A stretch of 64,000 nucleotides of DNA, taken from contig OZ219753.1 in assembly GCA_964291315.2 (NCBI GenBank), positions 672,001-736,000 of the forward strand, read 5' to 3'. A model generated the notes under the pieces. That model worked only from the letters and a program-made list of their open reading frames with translations, did not search any database and was not told where the DNA came from. Below, piece after piece: positions 1,665 to 50,881 of the stretch. This DNA is from Candidatus Poribacteria bacterium (lineage in GTDB: Bacteria > Poribacteria > WGA-4E > WGA-3G). A program made the position numbers and the translations under genes. The stretch's first letter is position 1; every line of letters begins with the position of its first letter.

Positions 1665-2615
1665 ATGAAGCAGATAGAAATTCCCGGAATCAATAAAGAT
1701 ATTTCACAACTGATCCTGGGGACCATGATGTTTTCCCCGTTGAAATTTGACTACAGCACCGAGATGCTAGATGCTTTTTTTGCAGCCGGTGGAAATGCGC
1801 TCGACACAGCTCACGGTTATGGTGGCGGCGATAGCGAGATGCTCATTGGACTTTGGATGCGGCAACGCAACAACCGTGACGATGTTTTTCTTATTGATAA
1901 AGGTGGGCATCCACAAGTTAAGGTTCCACGTCCGCGTCTCTCTCCTGAAGAACTAAAAGCCGATCTTGATGAAAGTATTGCACGGCTCCGGACTGATTAT
2001 ATAGACCTCTACATGCTCCATCGGGATGATCCTGTGATTCCGGTCAGCACAATCATCGACTATTTGAATGAAGAAATAGGTGCTGGACACCTTCGTGCTA
2101 TTGCTGCCTCTAACTGGCAGCCGCAGCGTATCATTGAGGCTAACACCTACGCGGCGGAAAACGGACTTGCTGGGTTTGTCGCTTGCAGCAACAACATTAG
2201 TCTAGCTGTGCCGAGGGAGCCGATGTGGGCAGGTTGTGTTTGCGTTGATGATGCTGCACGCAAATGGCATAACGAAAGTCAGTTTCCATTGATGCCGTGG
2301 TCTTCACAAGCACGAGGTTTTTTCAGCGGGGCATTTACACAAGAGAATCCCAAAGACCGCGATATGGTACGCGTTTACTATAACGATAACAACTTTGAAA
2401 GGCTTGAACGCGCAAAAGAATTGGGAGTGAAGTCTGGCTACTCTGCTATTCAAGTATCTCTAGCGTATTGCCTAAATCTTTCTTTTCCTGTTTTGCCGGT
2501 TGTTGGCCCTTTGAATCTAACAGAAATGGAATCTTCCGTCGGCGCGGCTGCACTTAAACTTGATAATGCTGAGATGCAATGGCTTAACTTAGAAACGGAG
2601 AAAAACCCACTATGA
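1665..2615 (+). CDS. Aldo/keto reductase
   Basis: LDTAHGYG, LRTDYIDLYMLHRDD and SNW motifs; ATG at 1665 after AAGGA preferred over upstream TTG at 1596. Confidence 0.9.
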   Translation: MKQIEIPGINKDISQLILGTMMFSPLKFDYSTEMLDAFFAAGGNALDTAHGYGGGDSEMLIGLWMRQRNNRDDVFLIDKGGHPQVKVPRPRLSPEELKADLDESIARLRTDYIDLYMLHRDDPVIPVSTIIDYLNEEIGAGHLRAIAASNWQPQRIIEANTYAAENGLAGFVACSNNISLAVPREPMWAGCVCVDDAARKWHNESQFPLMPWSSQARGFFSGAFTQENPKDRDMVRVYYNDNNFERLERAKELGVKSGYSAIQVSLAYCLNLSFPVLPVVGPLNLTEMESSVGAAALKLDNAEMQWLNLETEKNPL

Positions 2616-3697
2616 TGGTTCGGGTCCTTTTGCTACTGATTTGTCTCCAATTCATCAGTCTCTCGGTCGCCTTTGCTCAAGAAAGCTGAGGGGCCTGAAG
2701 CAACCCTGCAATCCCGCGTGGCGGGATCGGGTTAAGTGAAGTCAGTTTGACTTCAGAAAAGATGAAACGGTTCGAGGGGACATTCAGTATGATGGGGTGG
2801 TTTGATGCACAAGGCGGACACTTGGAAAAAAAAGGGATTTCCGCCGCCGGGCAAGTCATAGATGTGCCGTTGCATCGACACCATGTTACCCTAAACATTT
2901 TTCGCGTTGATGTTGGACTAAAATACCACTTTAATTTGCAGTGGATGCTTGAAGCAAATATCCCGTACGAAGTCAAAGCCCAAGAGGCGACTATTGAGGA
3001 AATTGAGCCTGTTTCCGACGCTCAACTCGAAGCGATTATACGTAATCGAGACAACCATCATCGAAATGAGACCTACACGGGGCCCACGGACACAGATGTT
3101 TTTTTGGGATATCGGACGTCAAGCGTTTTGATGGCAGATGATTTCTTAGTGGGGCGTATCGGAACAACAGTCCCATTCGGCAAAACCGAAGAAGACCCCT
3201 GGAAATTAGGAGATGCTGGTCTTGAGCATCTCCATATTCAGTTTGGCACTGGGACCTTTAATCCGGTCGCGGATTTACATTACGGTGTCCCGATCTACAA
3301 CGGACTCAGAGCAAATGGCAGTATCCGCGGGAAGTTTCCATTCTATGAAAATAACAAAACTTATCGTGGTTCCAGAGTGTTTACCTACACAGCAGGGCTG
3401 AGTTATCGTCTCAATGCTTGGCTTTCGTTTCAAACAGGTTATCTCGGATTTTATCAATCTTACGCGTATTGGGCAGGCGAACAGGACATCAATACAGGGA
3501 TCCGCTTCAGCATGGCATCCGTGGGGGCATTGGTTGCAACACCTTACGATATTCCAGTATCTCTGACACTGATGTTGCCTTTGAGCCAAGAAACGCTCTA
3601 TGATGACACGGCTGCCCTGTTAGAAGGGGTATATGACGAGAGCGATGCTTTCGAATTTGGTCCCTTAGTATCTCTCACCGTCTTTTATGCATTTTAG
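2612..3697 (+). CDS. Putative double-selenocysteine (UxxU) exported / outer-membrane beta-barrel-like protein
   Basis: ATG 2612 overlaps the upstream stop (ATGA). Reads MMVRVLLLLICLQFISLSVAFAQES-TGA-GA-TGA-SNPAIP in frame with ORF 2747-3697. Signal peptide ends AFA, a SECIS-like hairpin follows, and the protein ends in Phe (VFYAF). Confidence 0.75.
2702..2733 (+). promoter_or_regulatory. Candidate bacterial SECIS element for TGA 2687-2689 and TGA 2696-2698
   Basis: ATCCCGC-GTG-GCGGGAT perfect 7-bp stem with a G-first loop, plus outer AACCC/GGGTT pairing; loop lies ~20 and ~29 nt 3' of the two TGAs. Confidence 0.7.
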
Positions 3698-3739
3698 CAT
3701 CAGAGGAACGTTATACTTATAGGGCATTAAGAAAAATTG

Positions 3740-5875
3740 ATGAGAATCAAATTGCCGAATTTTTCAATGCGATACTTCGTAATTCTAACGTTGGCTATTG
3801 TCTGTATTGGTTGCGGGGTTCCAAACAATCCATATCCGAAGTCTGAACAGAACGAGGCTATCTATTATGATACGTTTCGTGCGGAGCCAAAGCATTTTGA
3901 TCCTGCAGTGTCCTACAGTTCGGACGAATATAGATTCCTCCAGCAAATTTATGAGCCGCCGCTACAGTATCATTACCTAAAGCGTCCGTACGAGTTAGTG
4001 TCGTTGACGGCTGAAACTATACCGCAACCTCAATATTTCGATGCTGCTGGGGCCCCGTTGTCATCCGATGCACCAGCGTCGTCCGTTGCGCGCGCTGTGT
4101 ATGAGATCCGTATTCGTCCGGGCATCATGTATCAGCCCCATCCGTGTTTCGCAAAAACCGAAAGTGGGGAGTGGCGTTATCGCGATCTGACAGCAGTAGA
4201 TGTGAAGGGTTTTACCCAAGTTAAAGATTTCCTGATGACAGGGACGCGTGAACTTATCGCCGCGGATTATGTTTATCAGATTAAACGCATGGCAGACCCA
4301 AAGGTCTCCTGTCCTATTCTCAGCACGTTGCAAGATTATATAGTTGGTATGGAAGCGTATGCTAATGCCGTTTCTGATGGTGAGGCTGATCATCCTTTCC
4401 CGGGCGTAGAAGTCGTGGATCGGTATACTTATAAAATTGTTCTCAAGGCGAAATATCCTCAGTTCGTGTACTGGTTAGCAATGCCCTTCTTCGCCCCAAT
4501 GCCTCATGAGGCAATTGATTTTTACGCTCAACCTGTTGTGAAAGAACGGAACATTACAATTGATAGATTTCCCGTAGGAACCGGTGCCTATCGGATAGAA
4601 ACACTTATCTCACATAAGGAGATAGTACTCGTCAAAAACGAAAACTTTCGGGTCGAACACTACCCGTCAAGCGGGGAAGCTGTGGATAGAGAAAACGGAC
4701 TTTTGGACGATGCCCGGGAAATCATTCCGTTTATACCGAAAGCTGTCTACAAATTAGAAAAAGAATATATTCCGCGTTGGAATAAATTCTTACAAGGTTA
4801 TTACGACATCTCCGGCATCTCCTCAGATACGTTTGATAGTGCGGTCGTTTTCAGCGATACCGGAAGTCCGTCAGCGAGCGAAGCATTGGGAACGAAAGGG
4901 ATAATTTTACGGACTAACATAGAACCGACGACCCTCTATTTAGCCTTTAATATGCTTGATGATACTGTTGGCGGGTATACTGATAAGAAACAGAAACTCC
5001 GTCAGGCGATTTCGATTGCTATTAATTATGAAGAGTACATTGAAATTTTTCTGAATGGACGCGGTATAATCTCACACAGTCCGATTCCGCCGGGTATCTT
5101 TGGTTACGAAGCCGATGAGATCGGTATTAATCCTTATATGTACGATTGGGATGAGGAGAGGAAGCATCCAGCTCGCAAATCTATTGAAGTAGCACGTAAA
5201 CTTCTCGCGGAAGCGGGGTATCCGGGGGGACAGGATAGTAAGGGTAACCCTCTTGTCATATCTTTCGACAATACATGGAACACGGCTGGTGCCACGGCTG
5301 CTTTAACGTGGATGCGGAACAAGTTAGAACAGCTCGGAATTACCATGGAAAGTCGTACTACTGACTATAATCGTTTTCGAGATAAGGTAAAGAACGGGAA
5401 TTTTCAGATGATCTTTTGGGGATGGCATGCTGACTACCCCGACGCGGAGAATTTTATGTTCCTTCTCTATGGTCCGAACAGCAAGGCCCGACACGATGGG
5501 GAGAACGCTGCTAATTATGACAACCCAGAATTCGATCGTCTCTTTGAAGAGATGAAAAATATGACAAATTCGCCAGAACGCTTGGCGATCATCCGAAAGA
5601 TGAAGCGCCTGCTGCAACAAGATGCCCCTTGGGTTTTTACCTATCATCCTGTTGATTTTGATTTGTCACACGAATGGCTAAAAAACAATAAACCGAGTTC
5701 CATGGGGACGAGAGCGCTAAAATATCTTCGTGTTGATGCAACGCAACGGGCGGAAAACCGTCAAGAGTGGAATCGGCCTATTCTCTGGCCTCTATGGTTA
5801 TGTGCTGCATTCCTTATTTTAGGGACGGTTCCTGCTATCATGACGATTTGGAAACAGGAACGAGGCAAGTCGTAA
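3740..5875 (+). CDS. ABC transporter substrate-binding protein, family 5 (OppA/DppA-like), with C-terminal TM anchor
   Basis: Lipobox-like IGC, HFDPA, PVGTGAY, GWHADYPDAENF, NYDNPEFDRL; hydrophobic C-terminus. Confidence 0.9.
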   Translation: MRIKLPNFSMRYFVILTLAIVCIGCGVPNNPYPKSEQNEAIYYDTFRAEPKHFDPAVSYSSDEYRFLQQIYEPPLQYHYLKRPYELVSLTAETIPQPQYFDAAGAPLSSDAPASSVARAVYEIRIRPGIMYQPHPCFAKTESGEWRYRDLTAVDVKGFTQVKDFLMTGTRELIAADYVYQIKRMADPKVSCPILSTLQDYIVGMEAYANAVSDGEADHPFPGVEVVDRYTYKIVLKAKYPQFVYWLAMPFFAPMPHEAIDFYAQPVVKERNITIDRFPVGTGAYRIETLISHKEIVLVKNENFRVEHYPSSGEAVDRENGLLDDAREIIPFIPKAVYKLEKEYIPRWNKFLQGYYDISGISSDTFDSAVVFSDTGSPSASEALGTKGIILRTNIEPTTLYLAFNMLDDTVGGYTDKKQKLRQAISIAINYEEYIEIFLNGRGIISHSPIPPGIFGYEADEIGINPYMYDWDEERKHPARKSIEVARKLLAEAGYPGGQDSKGNPLVISFDNTWNTAGATAALTWMRNKLEQLGITMESRTTDYNRFRDKVKNGNFQMIFWGWHADYPDAENFMFLLYGPNSKARHDGENAANYDNPEFDRLFEEMKNMTNSPERLAIIRKMKRLLQQDAPWVFTYHPVDFDLSHEWLKNNKPSSMGTRALKYLRVDATQRAENRQEWNRPILWPLWLCAAFLILGTVPAIMTIWKQERGKS

Positions 5876-5926: not shown

Positions 5927-6907
5927 ATGCTTAGCTATATTATCCGTCGAACCCTTTACGCGATTCCAATTTTAATCGGCGTAAACCTCATTGTCTTTTT
6001 GCTTTTTTTCGTGGTGAACTCGCCTGACCAAATGGCGCGTACAATTCTCGGAGAGAAAAATATTACGCAAGAAGATGTTAATAATTGGAAAAAACAAAAC
6101 GGGTATCATCTGCCACTTTGGTTCAATGCAGAGGTATCTGGAAGCCAGCGATTTACGGAAACTATCTTCTTTCAAAAATCGTTTAAACTCTTTCTCTTTG
6201 ATTTTGGAACCTCGGATAGGAACAATATTAATATTACGTCACAAATTTCACAGCGGATGTGGGCAAGTTTCGCTATTGCACTGCCAACATTTCTACTTGG
6301 GCTCTCTGTGAATATTACCGTTTCAATGATTGTGGCTTACTATCGTGCAACTTACGTCGATTTCTGGGGCACAATCGTTGCTGTTATCCTTATGTCTGTG
6401 TCAGCGCTCTTCTATATCATTGGTGGGCAATGGATATTCGGGAAAATATTGCGCCTCTTCCCGATTTCTGGATATAATGCTGGTACCAACATGTTCAAAT
6501 TCGTAGCACTGCCTGTGATGATTGGTGTTATTAGTGGGATCGGTGTCGGAATTCGTTTCTATCGGACAATATTTCTTGAGGAGGTCAATCGGGACTATAT
6601 ACGAACGGCACGGGCAAAAGGGTTAAGTGAAGTAATAATTCTTTTTAAACATGCACTTAAGAACGCTATGATTCCGATTTTGACAAACGTTGTATCAACG
6701 ATCCCGTACCTCTTCCTCGGAAGTTTGTTGATAGAGGCATTTTTTGCAATTCCGGGATTAGGAAGTTTTCTGATCGAAGCTATTCAAGCACAAGATTTCG
6801 CAATTGTGCGGAGCATGGTGTATCTTGGGTCGGTGCTGTACATTATCAGCCTGGTTCTAACTGACATTAGTTATACTTTAGTGGATCCGCGTGTCCGATT
6901 TGAGTGA
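5927..6907 (+). CDS. Peptide/nickel ABC transporter permease (DppB/OppB-like)
   Basis: YIIRR start, EAA loop DYIRTARAKGL, KHALKNA, DISYTLVDPRVR end. Confidence 0.93.
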   Translation: MLSYIIRRTLYAIPILIGVNLIVFLLFFVVNSPDQMARTILGEKNITQEDVNNWKKQNGYHLPLWFNAEVSGSQRFTETIFFQKSFKLFLFDFGTSDRNNINITSQISQRMWASFAIALPTFLLGLSVNITVSMIVAYYRATYVDFWGTIVAVILMSVSALFYIIGGQWIFGKILRLFPISGYNAGTNMFKFVALPVMIGVISGIGVGIRFYRTIFLEEVNRDYIRTARAKGLSEVIILFKHALKNAMIPILTNVVSTIPYLFLGSLLIEAFFAIPGLGSFLIEAIQAQDFAIVRSMVYLGSVLYIISLVLTDISYTLVDPRVRFE

Positions 6908-6919
6908 GAAAAAGGAAAA

Positions 6920-7357
6920 ATGATTGTACAAAATAGGAGCTATCAAATTCTGCAAGGCGCGATGAGTCTGCTATTGGGAAGCATCAGTATTTGTTTATTG
7001 TTAACGCTCCGGCATTCAGGGTATCCGAGCATGATACTTTCCACTTTTCTGATAGTAGGGCTCACCTTGATTTTTTCGGGCGACTATCTTCTTAATCCTT
7101 TTAAATTGCCAGTCACACCGCGGAAACAGGCTTTAGCAAGTGATATTGGACTCATCGCTTACGGGGTCCTCTATTTTAGTATCGCTATGTCGAAACTCTT
7201 GCAACCACATTGGATAGTTGTTAATCTACCGGTCTTTTTACAACCGATTTGGATACGCCGCGGATTAGCTGGTGTCGGAATCGTCTTGATTGCTACGGGC
7301 GTTTACGGCATCTATCATTTATGGATAGATCCATTGCCAGAAGATCCTGCGGAATAG
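6920..7357 (+). CDS. Hypothetical integral membrane protein (about 4 TM)
   Basis: AAGGA RBS, 12 nt after the permease stop, four hydrophobic segments. Confidence 0.7.
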   Translation: MIVQNRSYQILQGAMSLLLGSISICLLLTLRHSGYPSMILSTFLIVGLTLIFSGDYLLNPFKLPVTPRKQALASDIGLIAYGVLYFSIAMSKLLQPHWIVVNLPVFLQPIWIRRGLAGVGIVLIATGVYGIYHLWIDPLPEDPAE

Positions 7358-22993: not shown

Positions 22994-25699
22994 CTAAAGT
23001 GGTTCTAGGCGGACCGGACACACTTTTAGCTCAGCTGTGTGAGTAACCGGGTCGTAGCCGGAACCAGTTAATAAATTAACCGGTACATCTGCGAAGCTGA
23101 AACTAGCGAAAACTGTGCCGCGCGGTGAACGGTGCGTTGCTTTCACTTTGATAGTGATGCTTCCGCGCGCACTACTCATTTTACACCATTCGCCATCTGC
23201 TATTTTCCATTTCTTGAGGTCCTCCGGATTGACTTCCAACGATTCCTCAGGTAAAAGATAATCAATCCCTTCTGCTCTACCTGTTTGCGTCCGGGTGTGA
23301 TACGACTGCAAACGCCTCCCCGTTGTCAGCCAGATTGGAAACGCTTCGCTAATTGTCTCAGCAGGGTCTCGGTAATGTACATTTGAAAAGATACCACGCC
23401 CGTTGACAAATGTCTTTTTATGGAGTATCGGTGTGCCGGTATGTCCTTTGTGGGGTACGGGCCATTGATACTCGCCTTTCTCAATGCGTTCCCAATCTAG
23501 ACCTGCATAAATAGGCGAAACTCGACAGAGCTCATTGAAAATCGGTTTCGGGGCATCGAAATCAAAACCGTTAAGACCGAGGCGTTGGGCGATTTGACAA
23601 ATAATCCACCAATCCGGTTTTGCTTCACCTGGCGGTGGCACTGCAGCGCGCATCCGCTGGACCCGTCGTTCTGTATTCGTGCAGACCCCATCCGTTTCAC
23701 CCCATGCGGTTGCTGGCAGCACAACATCAGCGAGTTCTGCGGTCTCAGTCAGGAAAATGTCAATAACGACGAGGTGCTCCAGCGAGGCGAGAGCGTGTTC
23801 ACAATGTCGCCGGTCCGGGTCAGAGATCAACGTGTTTTCGCCGTCAATGAGCATTGCGTAGATGCTGTCACCACAGAGCTCCAAAGCAGTAACCTTAGTA
23901 ATACCTTTCTCTAAATCAATTTCTCTGCCGTATTCTGCTTTAAACTTTGCCTGATGCTCAGTATCTGTAACAGACTGGAATCCGGGGTAGTTATTTGGTA
24001 ATGCACCGCTATCCCCTGCCCCTTGGATATTATTCTGTCCGCGCATCGGGTTAATACCAGTTCCCTCTCGCCCGATATTGCCGGTCATCAAGGCAAGATT
24101 GCACAAGCTCTGAACATTCTCAACACCACAGATATGCTCTGTGATTCCTAACGTGTAGTAGATAGCACTCTTATCGGCTCCGCCGTACCACATAGATGCG
24201 GTCTCAATATCTTTTGCGGGCACTCCTGTAATGGTTTCTGCCCACTCCGGGGTCCACTGACTGATGTGCTCAAAGAATTCCTCGAATCCGGTTGTGCGAT
24301 TTTTGATGAATTCTTCATCAATTAAACCTTCGCGAGCGATGACGTGTGCCATTCCCAACAGGAGAGCTGTATCCGAACCGACGCGGAGCGGCAGATAGAG
24401 GTCTGATATTTCTGATAACCCGATGCGTCGTGGATCTGCAACAATCAGTTTTGCCCCGCGGGCAATCGCTTTTTTTAGTCCGGTTGCGGCGACGGGATGG
24501 CACTCGGTCATATTTGTCCCGATACAGAAAATCACGTCCGGTTTTTGCATGTCGATGAGTGGATTAGACATCGCCCCACGTCCGATTGTCGCTGCCAGAC
24601 CGGCAACGGTCGGGGCGTGTCAGGCGCGGCTACAATTGTCGATATAGTTTGTACCAAACCCGGCACGAATAAACTTCTGCATGAGATATGCGGCCTCGGT
24701 GGGTGCGCGCCCAGAAGCAACACCGTAGATGCTATGTCTACCATGTTGTACATTGACCGTGTGGAAACCCTTGGCGGCCCTATCAAGGGCATTATCCCAT
24801 GTAGTCTTGTGCAGTTCCCCATCAGCGCCGCGGATGAGCGGGATTTTCAACCGATCTGGATGTTGAACAAAGTCGTAAGCGAATTGCCCTTTGACACAAA
24901 GTGCCCCCTGATTTGCGGGTCCGTCCATCGCCGGATGAATGCCAACAATCCTCTCATGTTTCGTCAGCACATCAACGGAACACCCGACCCCGCAATATGG
25001 ACAGATTGTCCGTGTTTTGTCAGGGACAGCGTCTTCTATATCGTTAAAGGCGCGGAGTGCTTTTTTGTCAGCAAGTGCCCCGGTCGGGCAAGTCTGGATG
25101 CACTGTCCACAAAAGGTGCAAGCCGAGTCCTTGAGGAGTCTGTCAAACTCGGTTGTAATTTGGGTATGAAAGCCGCGGTTCATGATGTTAATGGCATGGT
25201 CACCTTCTTGTTCAGCACAGACACGGACGCATCGATAACAGGAGATACAGAGGTCATAATCTCTGAGGATAAAAGGGTTGTCGTCATCAGCTTTGCTTGC
25301 GCCAGATGTTGCCCCGGTTATAGGTGGATCGTTAATTTTGTATTTGTCGCGGAGGTCTGCGAGTTCTCTGGAAGCATACCCTCGTAATGGGGATACATCT
25401 ACCTCCCGGTTCTCACTAATAACCATTTCGACAAGCGTTTTTCGGTAAGCCTCTATTGTATGAGTTGTCGTTCTGACTACCATCCCGGGTGTTGCTTTTG
25501 TTGTGCAAGATGGCACAGGATTTCGCGCACCCTCTAGCTCGACAATACAGAGACGACAGCCACCGAAAGGTTCAAGCCTTGGATCATAGCAGAGCGTTGG
25601 AATCTCTTTTTCATGGCGTTGGGCGATCTCAAGGATCGTTTCACCCTCGGAGAAGGGAACTTGAACCTCATCAATTTCGATTTTATGCGTCATGATCAT
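22994..25699 (-). CDS. fdhF: Selenocysteine-containing formate dehydrogenase alpha subunit with N-terminal Fe-S domains
   Basis: ORFs 24620-25699 and 22994-24571 join in frame through TGA 24622-24620: IDNCSRA-U-HAPTVAGL. Has 2Fe-2S, 2x4Fe-4S and CPYCGVGC motifs, RGQNNIQG, TNTERRVQ. Confidence 0.93.
24586..24619 (-). promoter_or_regulatory. SECIS element of fdhF
   Basis: TGA CAC GCC CCG ACC GTTGCC-GGTCT-GGCAGC closely resembles the E. coli fdhF SECIS (UUGCAGGUCUGCA). Confidence 0.85.
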
Positions 25700-49837: not shown

Positions 49838-50881
49838 TTAAAACACTTCTATATGTGCGTTATCTCCTGTGGTGACTTCTCCAATAAGTGCTGCTTCTGG
49901 GCAATCGGCTGCGTGGAGTTCTGTTAGGGCTGCGTTGGCGTTTTCGGCGGGCAGCGAGAAGAGTAGTCCGCCGGAGGTTTCTGCTTCCATCAAGATATGC
50001 TTCATTGCTGCGTTGTCTGTTCGGAAGGTTACCTTGTCGGCGAGGAAGGCTTTATTCGCGAGATAGGCTTGCGTATAGGTGTTTTGTGCGACGAGTTTGG
50101 GTGCATCAGGGAAGTAAGGTATTGCGTTGCTGTCAATTTTTAGATGTGCGTTGTTTCCTGCTGCCATTTCTGCTGCGTGTCCTAGTAGTCCGTATCCGGT
50201 GATGTCTGTGCAAGCGGTTGCGCTGTATTTCAGCATGATTTGTGATGCGGATGCGTTGAGTCGTGTCATGGATTCGACGAGTTGCGGTAGGACGGTGTCG
50301 CTGATTTTGTCAAATTTGAGGCCTGTGGTAAGGATACCGATGCCGAGATTTTTGGTTAGTATGAGTGCGTCTCCGGGTTGTGCGCCGTAGTTTCTGACGA
50401 ATTTTTCGGGGTGCACGATACCTGTCACTGCGAGTCCGTACATTAGTTCTGGTGCGTCTACGGTGTGCCCGCCGACGAGAGCGGTTTCTGCTTGCATTGC
50501 TTTTTCGGTGCCGCCTTTGACAATATCGCCGAGGATGGACAGGTCTAGGTCTGTTTTTGGCCAGCAGGTGATATTTAGTGCGGTTTTTGGTATTCCGCCC
50601 ATGCTATAGACATCACTGAGTGAGTTTGTTGCGGCGATGGCTCCGAATGTGTAGGGGTCGTCGACGATGGGTGTGAAATAGTCGACGGTGTTAACGAGGG
50701 CTATGTCGTTGGCAATGCGGTAGATCCCGGCATCGTCGGAGGTTTCTGTGCCGACGAGGAGGTTGGGGTCGTTGGACTTTGGGATCTTATTTAAAATGTG
50801 TGCGAGCTCCCCTGGAGCGAGTTTTGAAGCTCACCCGGCGCATTTGACGGTTGCGGTGAGTCGGATTTTCTTTTTTGTCAT
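49838..50881 (-). CDS. selD: Selenide, water dikinase (selenophosphate synthetase), Sec-containing
   Basis: MTKKKIRLTATVKCAG-U(17; TGA 50833-50831)-ASKLAPGEL...DDAGIY...TVDYFTPIVDDP, in frame with ORF 49838-50602; GGHT, TDITGYGL, ETSGGLL. Confidence 0.95.
50806..50818 (-). promoter_or_regulatory. SECIS hairpin of selD
   Basis: GCTCC-AGG-GGAGC stem-loop starting 13 nt after the TGA. Confidence 0.7.

Follow-up and report, generated by a model that had tools for sequence, protein, structure and literature searches.

The genome of a Candidatus Poribacteria bacterium (GenBank assembly GCA_964291315.2) contains, on contig OZ219753.1, a reading frame whose beginning is in doubt. In the stretch of 64,000 nt analysed here (positions 672,001 to 736,000 of the forward strand; hereafter the window, in whose coordinates all positions are given), a program-made list of open reading frames (ORFs) opens this frame at TTG 2747. 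The question is whether this frame is the rear part of a longer gene with two in-frame TGA codons, and what the product of such a gene would do. The analysis confirmed that positions 2612 to 3697 are one genuine, mis-annotated gene for an outer-membrane beta-barrel with two selenocysteine (Sec, U) residues. As the overall explanation we favour a Sec-decoded, exported barrel which handles thiophilic metals, with a probability of roughly 60%. Features lie on the plus strand unless stated otherwise.

Results and Discussion

A two-selenocysteine gene behind a shortened gene call

With read-through of the TGAs at 2687-2689 and 2696-2698, the frame extends upstream as far as an ATG at 2612-2614, which overlaps the TGA stop (2613-2615) of an aldo-keto reductase ORF (1596-2615) in the sequence ATGA. 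The coding sequence (2612-3697) comprises 361 residues, both TGAs being read as Sec, and a TAG stop. Its product begins with MMVRVLLLLICLQFISLSVAFA, continues with QES-U-G-A-U-SNPAIPRGGIG and ends in FYAF. An earlier interpretation made from the letters alone (the sequence-only reading) had proposed a hidden N-terminal extension from TTG 2747 to ATG 2612, and the read-through translation bears this out. Residues 1-22 (2612-2677) read as a signal peptide consisting of MMVR, a hydrophobic core and A-F-A; this build of n-region, core and A-x-A was judged by eye, and the cleavage site was deduced from the AXA rule. If cleavage takes place after AFA, the first UGA (2687-2689, Sec26) specifies residue 4 of the mature protein and the second (2696-2698, Sec29) residue 7, the places at which U-G-A-U had been predicted. 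The clean signal peptide of the earlier interpretation likewise stands, a comparable hydrophobic leader being found in 40 of 40 loci read through, with an ATG start in every ORF that was delimited by script.

Database gene calls do not contain this region. Among the matches listed, 120 relatives are annotated with 290-327 amino acids (aa), typically about 302, all without the N-terminus. The relatives listed are thus called about 60 codons short, and the predicted proteins appear without a signal peptide.

The equipment for Sec insertion is complete in the source genome, where selA (588.9 bits), selB (328.8 bits), the adjoining tRNA-Sec gene selC (78.1 bits) and selD each match above the curated cut-off. 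As had been stated from the sequence, the window itself carries a Sec-type selD (49940-50863, minus strand) and a gene for Fdh-alpha (about 23009-25009, minus strand), each with one in-frame TGA (50831-50833 and 24620-24622, respectively). The features by which selenoproteins are recognised computationally, i.e. a conserved UGA, Cys homologues, a SECIS-like stem-loop (Sec insertion sequence, SECIS) and selA, selB, selC and selD, are all present. We are therefore highly confident that the gene encodes a real selenoprotein, and the exported two-Sec (UxxU) protein of the earlier interpretation is supported by the conserved TGAs, the Cys homologues and the Sec machinery.

Conservation of the two TGAs and their cysteine counterparts

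Conservation was assessed by a six-frame search of 41 related genomes in which stops inside the matches were counted. A full-length orthologue with 70-79% identity and exactly two TGAs is present in 22 of 24 Poribacteria genomes of the same genus; in G004 and G012, of the same genus, the six-frame search found the paralogue and no orthologue. This paralogue (56-59% identity, one TGA) occurs in 22 of the 24 same-genus genomes as well as in the source genome. Among genomes of the same order, 12 of 16 yielded 13 matches, 11 of them with two TGAs and two with one. Frame, leader and both TGAs are retained in genomes down to 35% identity. The motif following the signal peptide in the 40 read-through loci is UGAU in 31, CPAU in seven and CGAU and CSAU in one each, and it is directly followed by S-N-P in all 40. 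Position 1 hence alternates between U and C within the Poribacteria.

Cys forms of both positions were obtained with a profile search over 1.84 billion representative proteins, which resulted in 500 relatives, mostly N-truncated gene calls. The full-length homologues in this set carry CPAC-SNP, CAAC-GNP, CAGC-RNP, CSGC-TNP or CPAC-QNP at identical columns. All motif types (UGAU, UPAU, CPAU, CGAU, CSAU and CPAC/CAAC/CAGC/CSGC) share one pair of alignment columns. With Cys-type queries, 67 metagenome loci were collected, of which 24 are CPAC, 15 UPAU, 19 UGAU, three CPAU and one CSAU, while five are truncated. Position 2 is U in every Sec form and C only where position 1 is C as well, and the form UxxC was found in 0 of 179 loci with a motif.

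The sequence-only reading had asked for homologues with CxxC, CxxU or UxxU at this place and had named Trp or Arg there, or a sequencing error, as what would speak against a selenoprotein. All three expected forms were found at exactly the motif position, and it is Cys, not Trp, that aligns at both positions. Contigs from four of four public sequencing runs which cover 2560-2800 retain both TGAs. Two of these contigs stem from relatives with 91-93% identity and show 15-22 other differences in 241 nt, and the two near-identical ones may be the source of the window DNA itself. In two database entries (P0162 and P0165) the Sec codons are rendered as Trp (S-W-G-A-W-S-N-P), these proteins presumably having been called under a code with TGA as Trp. 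In the genomes studied here TGA is still a stop, ending the upstream gene and several orthologues of the barrel gene.

Two conserved stem-loops downstream of the UGAs

The first stem-loop (2702-2733) consists of an outer stem (2702-2706/2729-2733) and an inner stem (2711-2717/2721-2727) closed by the loop GUG (2718-2720). The outer helix begins 12 nt past UGA 1 and the inner helix 12 nt past UGA 2, and the loop lies 19 nt from UGA 2 and 28 nt from UGA 1. The consensus bacterial SECIS, as given in the covered text of PMC13188914, has a loop of 3-9 nt with a G within its two leading nucleotides, located 16-37 nt from the UGA. Stem-loop 1 agrees with it in spacing and loop, and the G-loop hairpin at SECIS distance that had been described from the sequence folds as proposed. 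The known selenoprotein genes of the same genome provide a yardstick, with hairpins 12 nt past the UGA in selD (loop AGG) and 11 nt past it in fdhA (loop GGUCU). For the 81 nt from 2680 to 2760 a minimum free energy (MFE) of -27.9 kcal/mol was calculated (z -1.89). A hairpin of at least 6 bp at the site of stem-loop 1 was found in 111 of 115 UxxU, 6 of 12 CxxU and 9 of 18 CxxC unique sequences, compared with a background of 783 in 3000.

In the unique sequences, the 3' arm of stem-loop 1 (nt 26-32, numbered from UGA 2's first base) has two different 5' arms as possible complements. Of the pairing registers, i+j=40 and i+j=48 form on average 5.95 and 5.67 of 7 pairs, respectively, and all others 1.4-3.9; in 71 of 109 UxxU versus 0 of 17 CxxC sequences, six or more of the 7 pairs form in both. 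When the codons were synonymously recoded with the peptide kept, register A fell from 5.98 of 7 pairs to 4.05 +/- 0.10. Register B dropped only to 4.89 +/- 0.07, so that conservation of the peptide N-P-x-I-P-R-G-G accounts for most of it.

The second stem-loop (UGAAGUCA-GUU-UGACUUCA, 2737-2755) has its loop at 2745-2747, and the spurious TTG start 2747 falls within this loop. Covariation was analysed in an alignment of 38 non-redundant Sec-form fragments (<90% identity) out of 156. In stem-loop 2, 8 of 8 pairs have changed on both sides and 86.5% of the cells pair, and hairpin covariation across orthologues, which the sequence-only reading had called for, is thereby present. For both stem-loops together 85.7% of the cells are paired versus 28-58% with the partners slid, and the covariation score is 0.309 versus 0.239 in shuffled alignments, a value reached by 0 of 500 shuffles, although these statistics overstate the significance because the sequences are related. 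RNAalifold recovered stem-loop 2 independently. A 6-bp hairpin with a loop opening (N)G[G/U] at this site occurs in 109 of 115 UxxU and 12 of 12 CxxU unique sequences, thus in 121 of 127 Sec forms, and in 0 of 18 CxxC sequences, at a background of 218 in 3000. It is seen in 95% of the sequences as observed and in 15% upon synonymous recoding. The loops in other clades (GGUCU, GGUCA, GGUUC and GGGUC) resemble that of fdhA. In the window, the loop of stem-loop 2 lies 46 nt past UGA 2 and 55 nt past UGA 1; in most orthologues it lies 40 nt past UGA 2.

The relatives in runs X3 and X4 (91-93% identical) differ from the window within both hairpins. In the first, the alternative 5' arm gains strength through T2707>C; in the second, A2750>G changes a U-A pair to U-G, so that the structure is kept despite the 15-22 differences in 241 nt. 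A scan of the whole window with the Rfam gathering thresholds gave 0 matches.

One SECIS serving two UGAs, as proposed earlier, thus oversimplifies the arrangement. Two stem-loops are conserved, and that at 2737-2755, which had been missed, tracks Sec most tightly. Three arrangements come into question: stem-loop 1 may be the sole SECIS, assisted by an accessory hairpin; each UGA may have a SECIS of its own, the two lying in tandem; or a register-switching spacer may precede stem-loop 2.

Protein fold and conserved residues

Structures were predicted with AlphaFold2 (AF2) for the full-length and for the mature protein, the latter from 54 aligned sequences. The mature model (predicted local distance difference test, pLDDT, 88.2; predicted template modelling score, pTM, 0.85) is a 12-strand barrel of residues about 54-361 (2771-3694) with a terminal Phe and a pair of long outer loops, of which one is helical. 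In a structure search against representative structures (VIA-align), the closest match was the COG4313 channel 4rl8_A (Z 24.1, root-mean-square deviation 2.7 A, 253 of 267 residues aligned), followed by FapF (5o65_A, Z 23.4), both well separated from autotransporter barrels (Z 17-18) and from PcoB (Z 12.8); Foldseek concurs. The monomeric 12-strand barrel that characterises COG4313 channels is present in the predicted model. An outer-membrane barrel, for which the earlier interpretation had named structure prediction as a check, is thus strongly indicated. Profile searches did not reveal the family, as the window protein had no match in Pfam at E <= 0.01 and none in NCBIfam. For nine distant relatives the barrel was nowhere above the Pfam or NCBIfam cut-off, the best score being 18.3 bits versus 22 for PF13557. 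A few database relatives carry a precomputed match to PF13557 or PF13505, and the nearest ESM Atlas clusters carry PF13557, which serves as a lead only.

Over the 54 sequences, down to 21% identity, the invariant positions are C/U26, C/U29, N31, P32, H70, H90, H149, H150, R151, D160, G184, P188, H206, H208, G212, G214, W287 and G296. The codon of His70 (2819-2821) is invariant in alignments A1, A2 and A6. In H-R-H-H (residues 88-91; 2873-2884), H90 is invariant family-wide and H88 within the Sec clades, and in N-H-H-R-N-E-T (148-154; 3053-3073) the residues H149, H150 and R151 are invariant. The stretch E-H-L-H-I-Q-F-G (205-212; 3224-3247), with invariant H206, H208 and G212, is the most conserved one of the family and was used as a pattern for searching further loci. 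The clusters HRHH and NHHRNET as well as the terminal Phe are present as had been noted from the sequence. Judged by the order of the strands, the six invariant histidines would be placed in the barrel's outer half and its two long loops. The crystal structure of Pput2725 shows the N-terminal ~14 residues inside the lumen (covered part of PMC4493636), and by analogy a similarly inserted N-terminus is plausible here. Some distant Cys homologues possess an additional Cys pair (GC-x5-C) of structural appearance.

Gene neighbourhoods and a probable link to metals

Potential partner genes were counted in those CPAC and UPAU loci whose upstream sequence extends over 700 nt or more, and a partner had to lie on the same strand with a gap of 0-150 nt. 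A gene for an exported protein with an HMA motif and/or a thioredoxin motif (WCxPC) is located directly upstream in 18 of 19 CPAC and 11 of 12 UPAU loci (29/31), and the partner shows both motifs in 14 CPAC and nine UPAU loci. Furthermore, these loci hold MerT-HMA fusions, a CsoR-like repressor, ArsR, a P1B-ATPase (HMBD), an RND pump and DUF3347. The Cys-form homologue P0135 (442 aa) has a C-terminal HMA domain after the barrel (PF00403, E 5e-11), which would be periplasmic given a barrel of 12 strands. Behind the CPAU paralogue, 15 of 20 same-genus genomes have genes for a YHS-like protein, two OEP proteins and a CusB with HMBD domains, in this order. The sequence-only reading had proposed metal binding by the UxxU/CxxC N-terminus; the gene contexts of relatives and the HMA fusion of P0135 favour it.

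In one metagenome locus (L143:6231-6947, plus strand), the HMA motif of the partner holds two in-frame TGAs (V-E-G-M-T-U-P-S-G-U), and the ORF finder shortens the product to 168 aa. This HMA-thioredoxin gene sits directly upstream of a UPAU-type barrel gene and, judged from its sequence, looks like a two-Sec selenoprotein gene, too.

The neighbours of the window gene itself are different in kind. The aldo-keto reductase gene (1596-2615; Pfam PF00248, E 9.4e-49), whose stop overlaps the selenoprotein start, adjoins the barrel gene upstream in 72 of 80 Poribacteria loci. Downstream follow genes for an SBP_bac_5 binding protein (3737-5875, 712 aa), an Opp/Nik-type permease (5927-6907) and orf145 (6920-7357), which is kept downstream across the Poribacteria and whose 145-aa product looks like a membrane protein of about four helices, without a match to any family. 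The SBP_bac_5 and permease genes stand between the barrel gene and orf145 in 51 loci, an arrangement confined to this lineage, and are absent from 19 with a contiguous order of aldo-keto reductase, barrel, orf145 and cupin. They thus seem to have been inserted into a cluster that existed before. A second permease or an ATPase gene was not noticed within 8 kb, where no search was aimed at them. The paralogue of the source genome (C-P-A-U, one TGA) is located outside the window on the minus strand (G000:C4:247697-248737; L021, L121). The small protein encoded upstream of the paralogue (p146/p144) is not homologous to orf145.

Proposed role and its weighing

In the explanation we favour, SelB would decode both UGAs as Sec, guided by RNA structure just downstream inside the coding sequence, namely the two-tier stem-loop at 2702-2733 and the G-U-loop stem-loop at 2737-2755. 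The product would be exported by the Sec pathway and cleaved to a mature protein beginning with Q-E-S-Sec-G-A-Sec-S-N-P, in which about 25 flexible residues would precede the 12-strand COG4313/FapF-like barrel. The N-terminal UxxU, or CxxC in the Cys homologues, may then form, on a tether in the periplasm, a high-affinity site for Cu(I), Ag(I) or Hg(II), and together with H70, H90, H149, H150, H206 and H208 it could pass metals across the outer membrane or hold them there. In relatives, the barrel would work with periplasmic HMA-thioredoxin proteins or with Cus-type efflux pumps. Metal handling as such is based on homology and on the chemistry of the CxxC/UxxU pair with the histidine set, and on this ground we give it a little better than an even chance.

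A more elaborate version is considered tentative and rather doubtful as a whole. It combines a diselenol "claw" for Hg, Cu or Ag in an outer-membrane metal channel with a SECIS that re-registers for two UGAs 9 nt apart. One 3' arm would pair with either 5' arm as the ribosome advances three codons, and the canonical-looking stem-loop 2 (GUU here, GGUCU in relatives) would stay docked right behind. On this version, the protein would be the first selenoprotein of the COG4313/FapF fold, as far as the literature found shows, and it could also provide the step at the outer membrane in metal relays of mer/cus type.

Several observations weigh against the favoured explanation or lessen its support. 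The neighbours of the window gene (aldo-keto reductase, Opp-like parts, small membrane protein and cupin) include no metal gene, and the metal assignment therefore rests on homologues of 35-60% identity. An HMA-thioredoxin gene is present in 0 of 21 Poribacteria-type metagenome loci, and a fusion of this kind was not found in the source genome, which gave weak thioredoxin-domain matches only (E 1e-5). The Cus module is missing in five of 20 same-genus genomes, among them the source genome, where FMN_bind and VWA genes stand behind the paralogue instead. With regard to the protein, AF2 leaves the motif region unplaced (mature residues 1-30 have a pLDDT of 50-58 in both the full-length and the mature model), and the nearest folds are implicated in hydrophobic molecules (covered part of PMC4493636) or in polypeptide/amyloid export (FapF), not in metals. 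With regard to the RNA, the distance of stem-loop 2 exceeds the 16-37 nt of the consensus model in the covered text of PMC13188914, and the forms are not told apart by MFE z-scores calculated for the 42 nt that follow the second codon (UxxU -1.3, CxxU -2.3, CxxC -1.2). Finally, the related genomes are not independent, so that the conservation counts overstate the support.

The main rival to the metal reading is an uptake channel under redox gating, with a hydrophobic compound or some other non-metal as its substrate, in which a disulfide or diselenide of the CxxC/UxxU motif would switch the lumen. The UxxU of selenoprotein L is a known redox motif and counts in favour of such a gate. The thioredoxin-domain neighbour in relatives, which carries WCGPC, would reduce the motif, and in the window the barrel gene has an aldo-keto reductase gene as its coupled neighbour. 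In addition, the closest structural match is a COG4313 channel, whose N-terminal ~14 residues occlude the lumen and whose family is implicated in the uptake of hydrophobic molecules (covered part of PMC4493636). The same partner proteins have HMA domains too, however, and their loci are rich in MerT-HMA, CsoR-like, P1B-ATPase and Cus genes, while P0135 is even fused to HMA. As six invariant histidines are also hard to account for by redox gating alone, we regard this channel as unlikely, although it is the strongest competitor.

Less probable still is that the CxxC/UxxU pair is a structural or assembly staple of the N-terminal segment without a role as ligand, the barrel functioning otherwise. 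The location of the motif in the region left unplaced by AF2 and the structural-looking GC-x5-C pair of some distant Cys homologues would suit such a staple. Selenocysteine is costly, however, and thus rarely retained for structure alone; the flanking N-P is invariant as well, and the metal-gene contexts speak for a ligand.

That there is no selenoprotein, with translation ending at 2687 and starting again at TTG 2747 or a later Met and with 2612-2689 as a mini-ORF or decayed remnant, is what gene callers annotate, including for the 120 N-truncated relatives among the matches listed. This is very improbable, since the truncated product would be an outer-membrane barrel without a signal peptide, and since leader, frame and both TGAs are preserved down to 35% identity, full-length homologues have Cys at both positions, the hairpins covary in a Sec-specific manner and the Sec machinery is complete. 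A reading of the TGAs as Trp, Cys or Gly through a code change or near-cognate read-through, as in the entries P0162 and P0165 with W, can practically be set aside in view of the TGAs which end the upstream gene and several orthologues, the alignment of Cys rather than Trp at both positions and the presence of selA, selB, selC and selD.

Relation to known selenoproteins and barrels

Selenoprotein L is a eukaryotic protein of thioredoxin-like fold with a UxxU diselenide and a SECIS placed in the 3' UTR, and it is not a membrane protein. It shares with the window protein the UxxU with a CxxC counterpart, which in the latter belongs to a disordered tether preceding the beta-barrel.

Among the prokaryotic families, the UxxU metal-binding (seleno)protein NF041115 likewise has two Sec residues in place of a metal-binding CxxC, with the UGAs 9 nt apart, and is entered with two Sec in the covered part of Table 1 of PMC13188914. 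It is a small soluble protein of HMA fold, whereas the window protein is a membrane barrel without an NCBIfam match. NF041027 (GSU2204, MtrB-PioB-type) is an outer-membrane barrel selenoprotein as well, but it has one Sec in a CXXCH context and belongs to another, larger barrel family, to which the window protein shows no match. With respect to the fold, the COG4313/PF13557 channels (Pput2725 of Pseudomonas putida F1, 4rl8) and FapF (5o65) have a 12-strand barrel of the same size with an N-terminal segment before strand 1 in common with the window protein. Sequence identity to the latter is 11-13%, the Pfam model does not match it, and in the covered descriptions of COG4313 and FapF, which were compared as descriptions and not as sequences, no CxxC/UxxU-N-P motif, His set or selenocysteine is seen. 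The barrel PcoB/CopB (7pge) is linked to copper, too, but its Z of 12.8 is no better than that of unrelated barrels and there is no family match.

Table 1 of PMC13188914 (2026) lists 119 selenoprotein families and subfamilies. UxxU entries in the part covered are a Prx-like family, the metal-binding NF041115 and the FmdB family; the only outer-membrane barrel is GSU2204/MtrB-PioB (NF041027), and transporter-associated selenoproteins are listed as well. The window family is absent from this table as far as covered, and supplementary candidate lists of the catalogue papers, for instance of a groundwater-MAG survey that PMC13188914 cites, may hold it. A 2022 preprint (10.1101/2022.07.06.499078) describes, in its covered part, transporter selenoproteins and not the window family. 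In the literature found, there is no description of this barrel selenoprotein family nor of the family as a metal route, although supplements might list it. Lacking matches in Pfam and NCBIfam and absent from the families covered in PMC13188914, the protein appears to belong to no described family, in agreement with the sequence-only reading.

Conclusions

The gene at 2612-3697 represents a new family of selenoproteins whose fold is known already, with an unusual two-hairpin recoding region and probably a role in metal handling. The selenoproteome of prokaryotes thereby gains a widespread family with two Sec residues. The two hairpins and the two close UGAs offer a natural system for studying how SelB serves consecutive Sec codons. 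With its Cys forms located in loci of mer/cop/cus type, the family is a concrete candidate for the crossing or capture of thiophilic metals at the outer membrane. For the Poribacteria, this points to a selenium-dependent handling of metals in the sponge holobiont.

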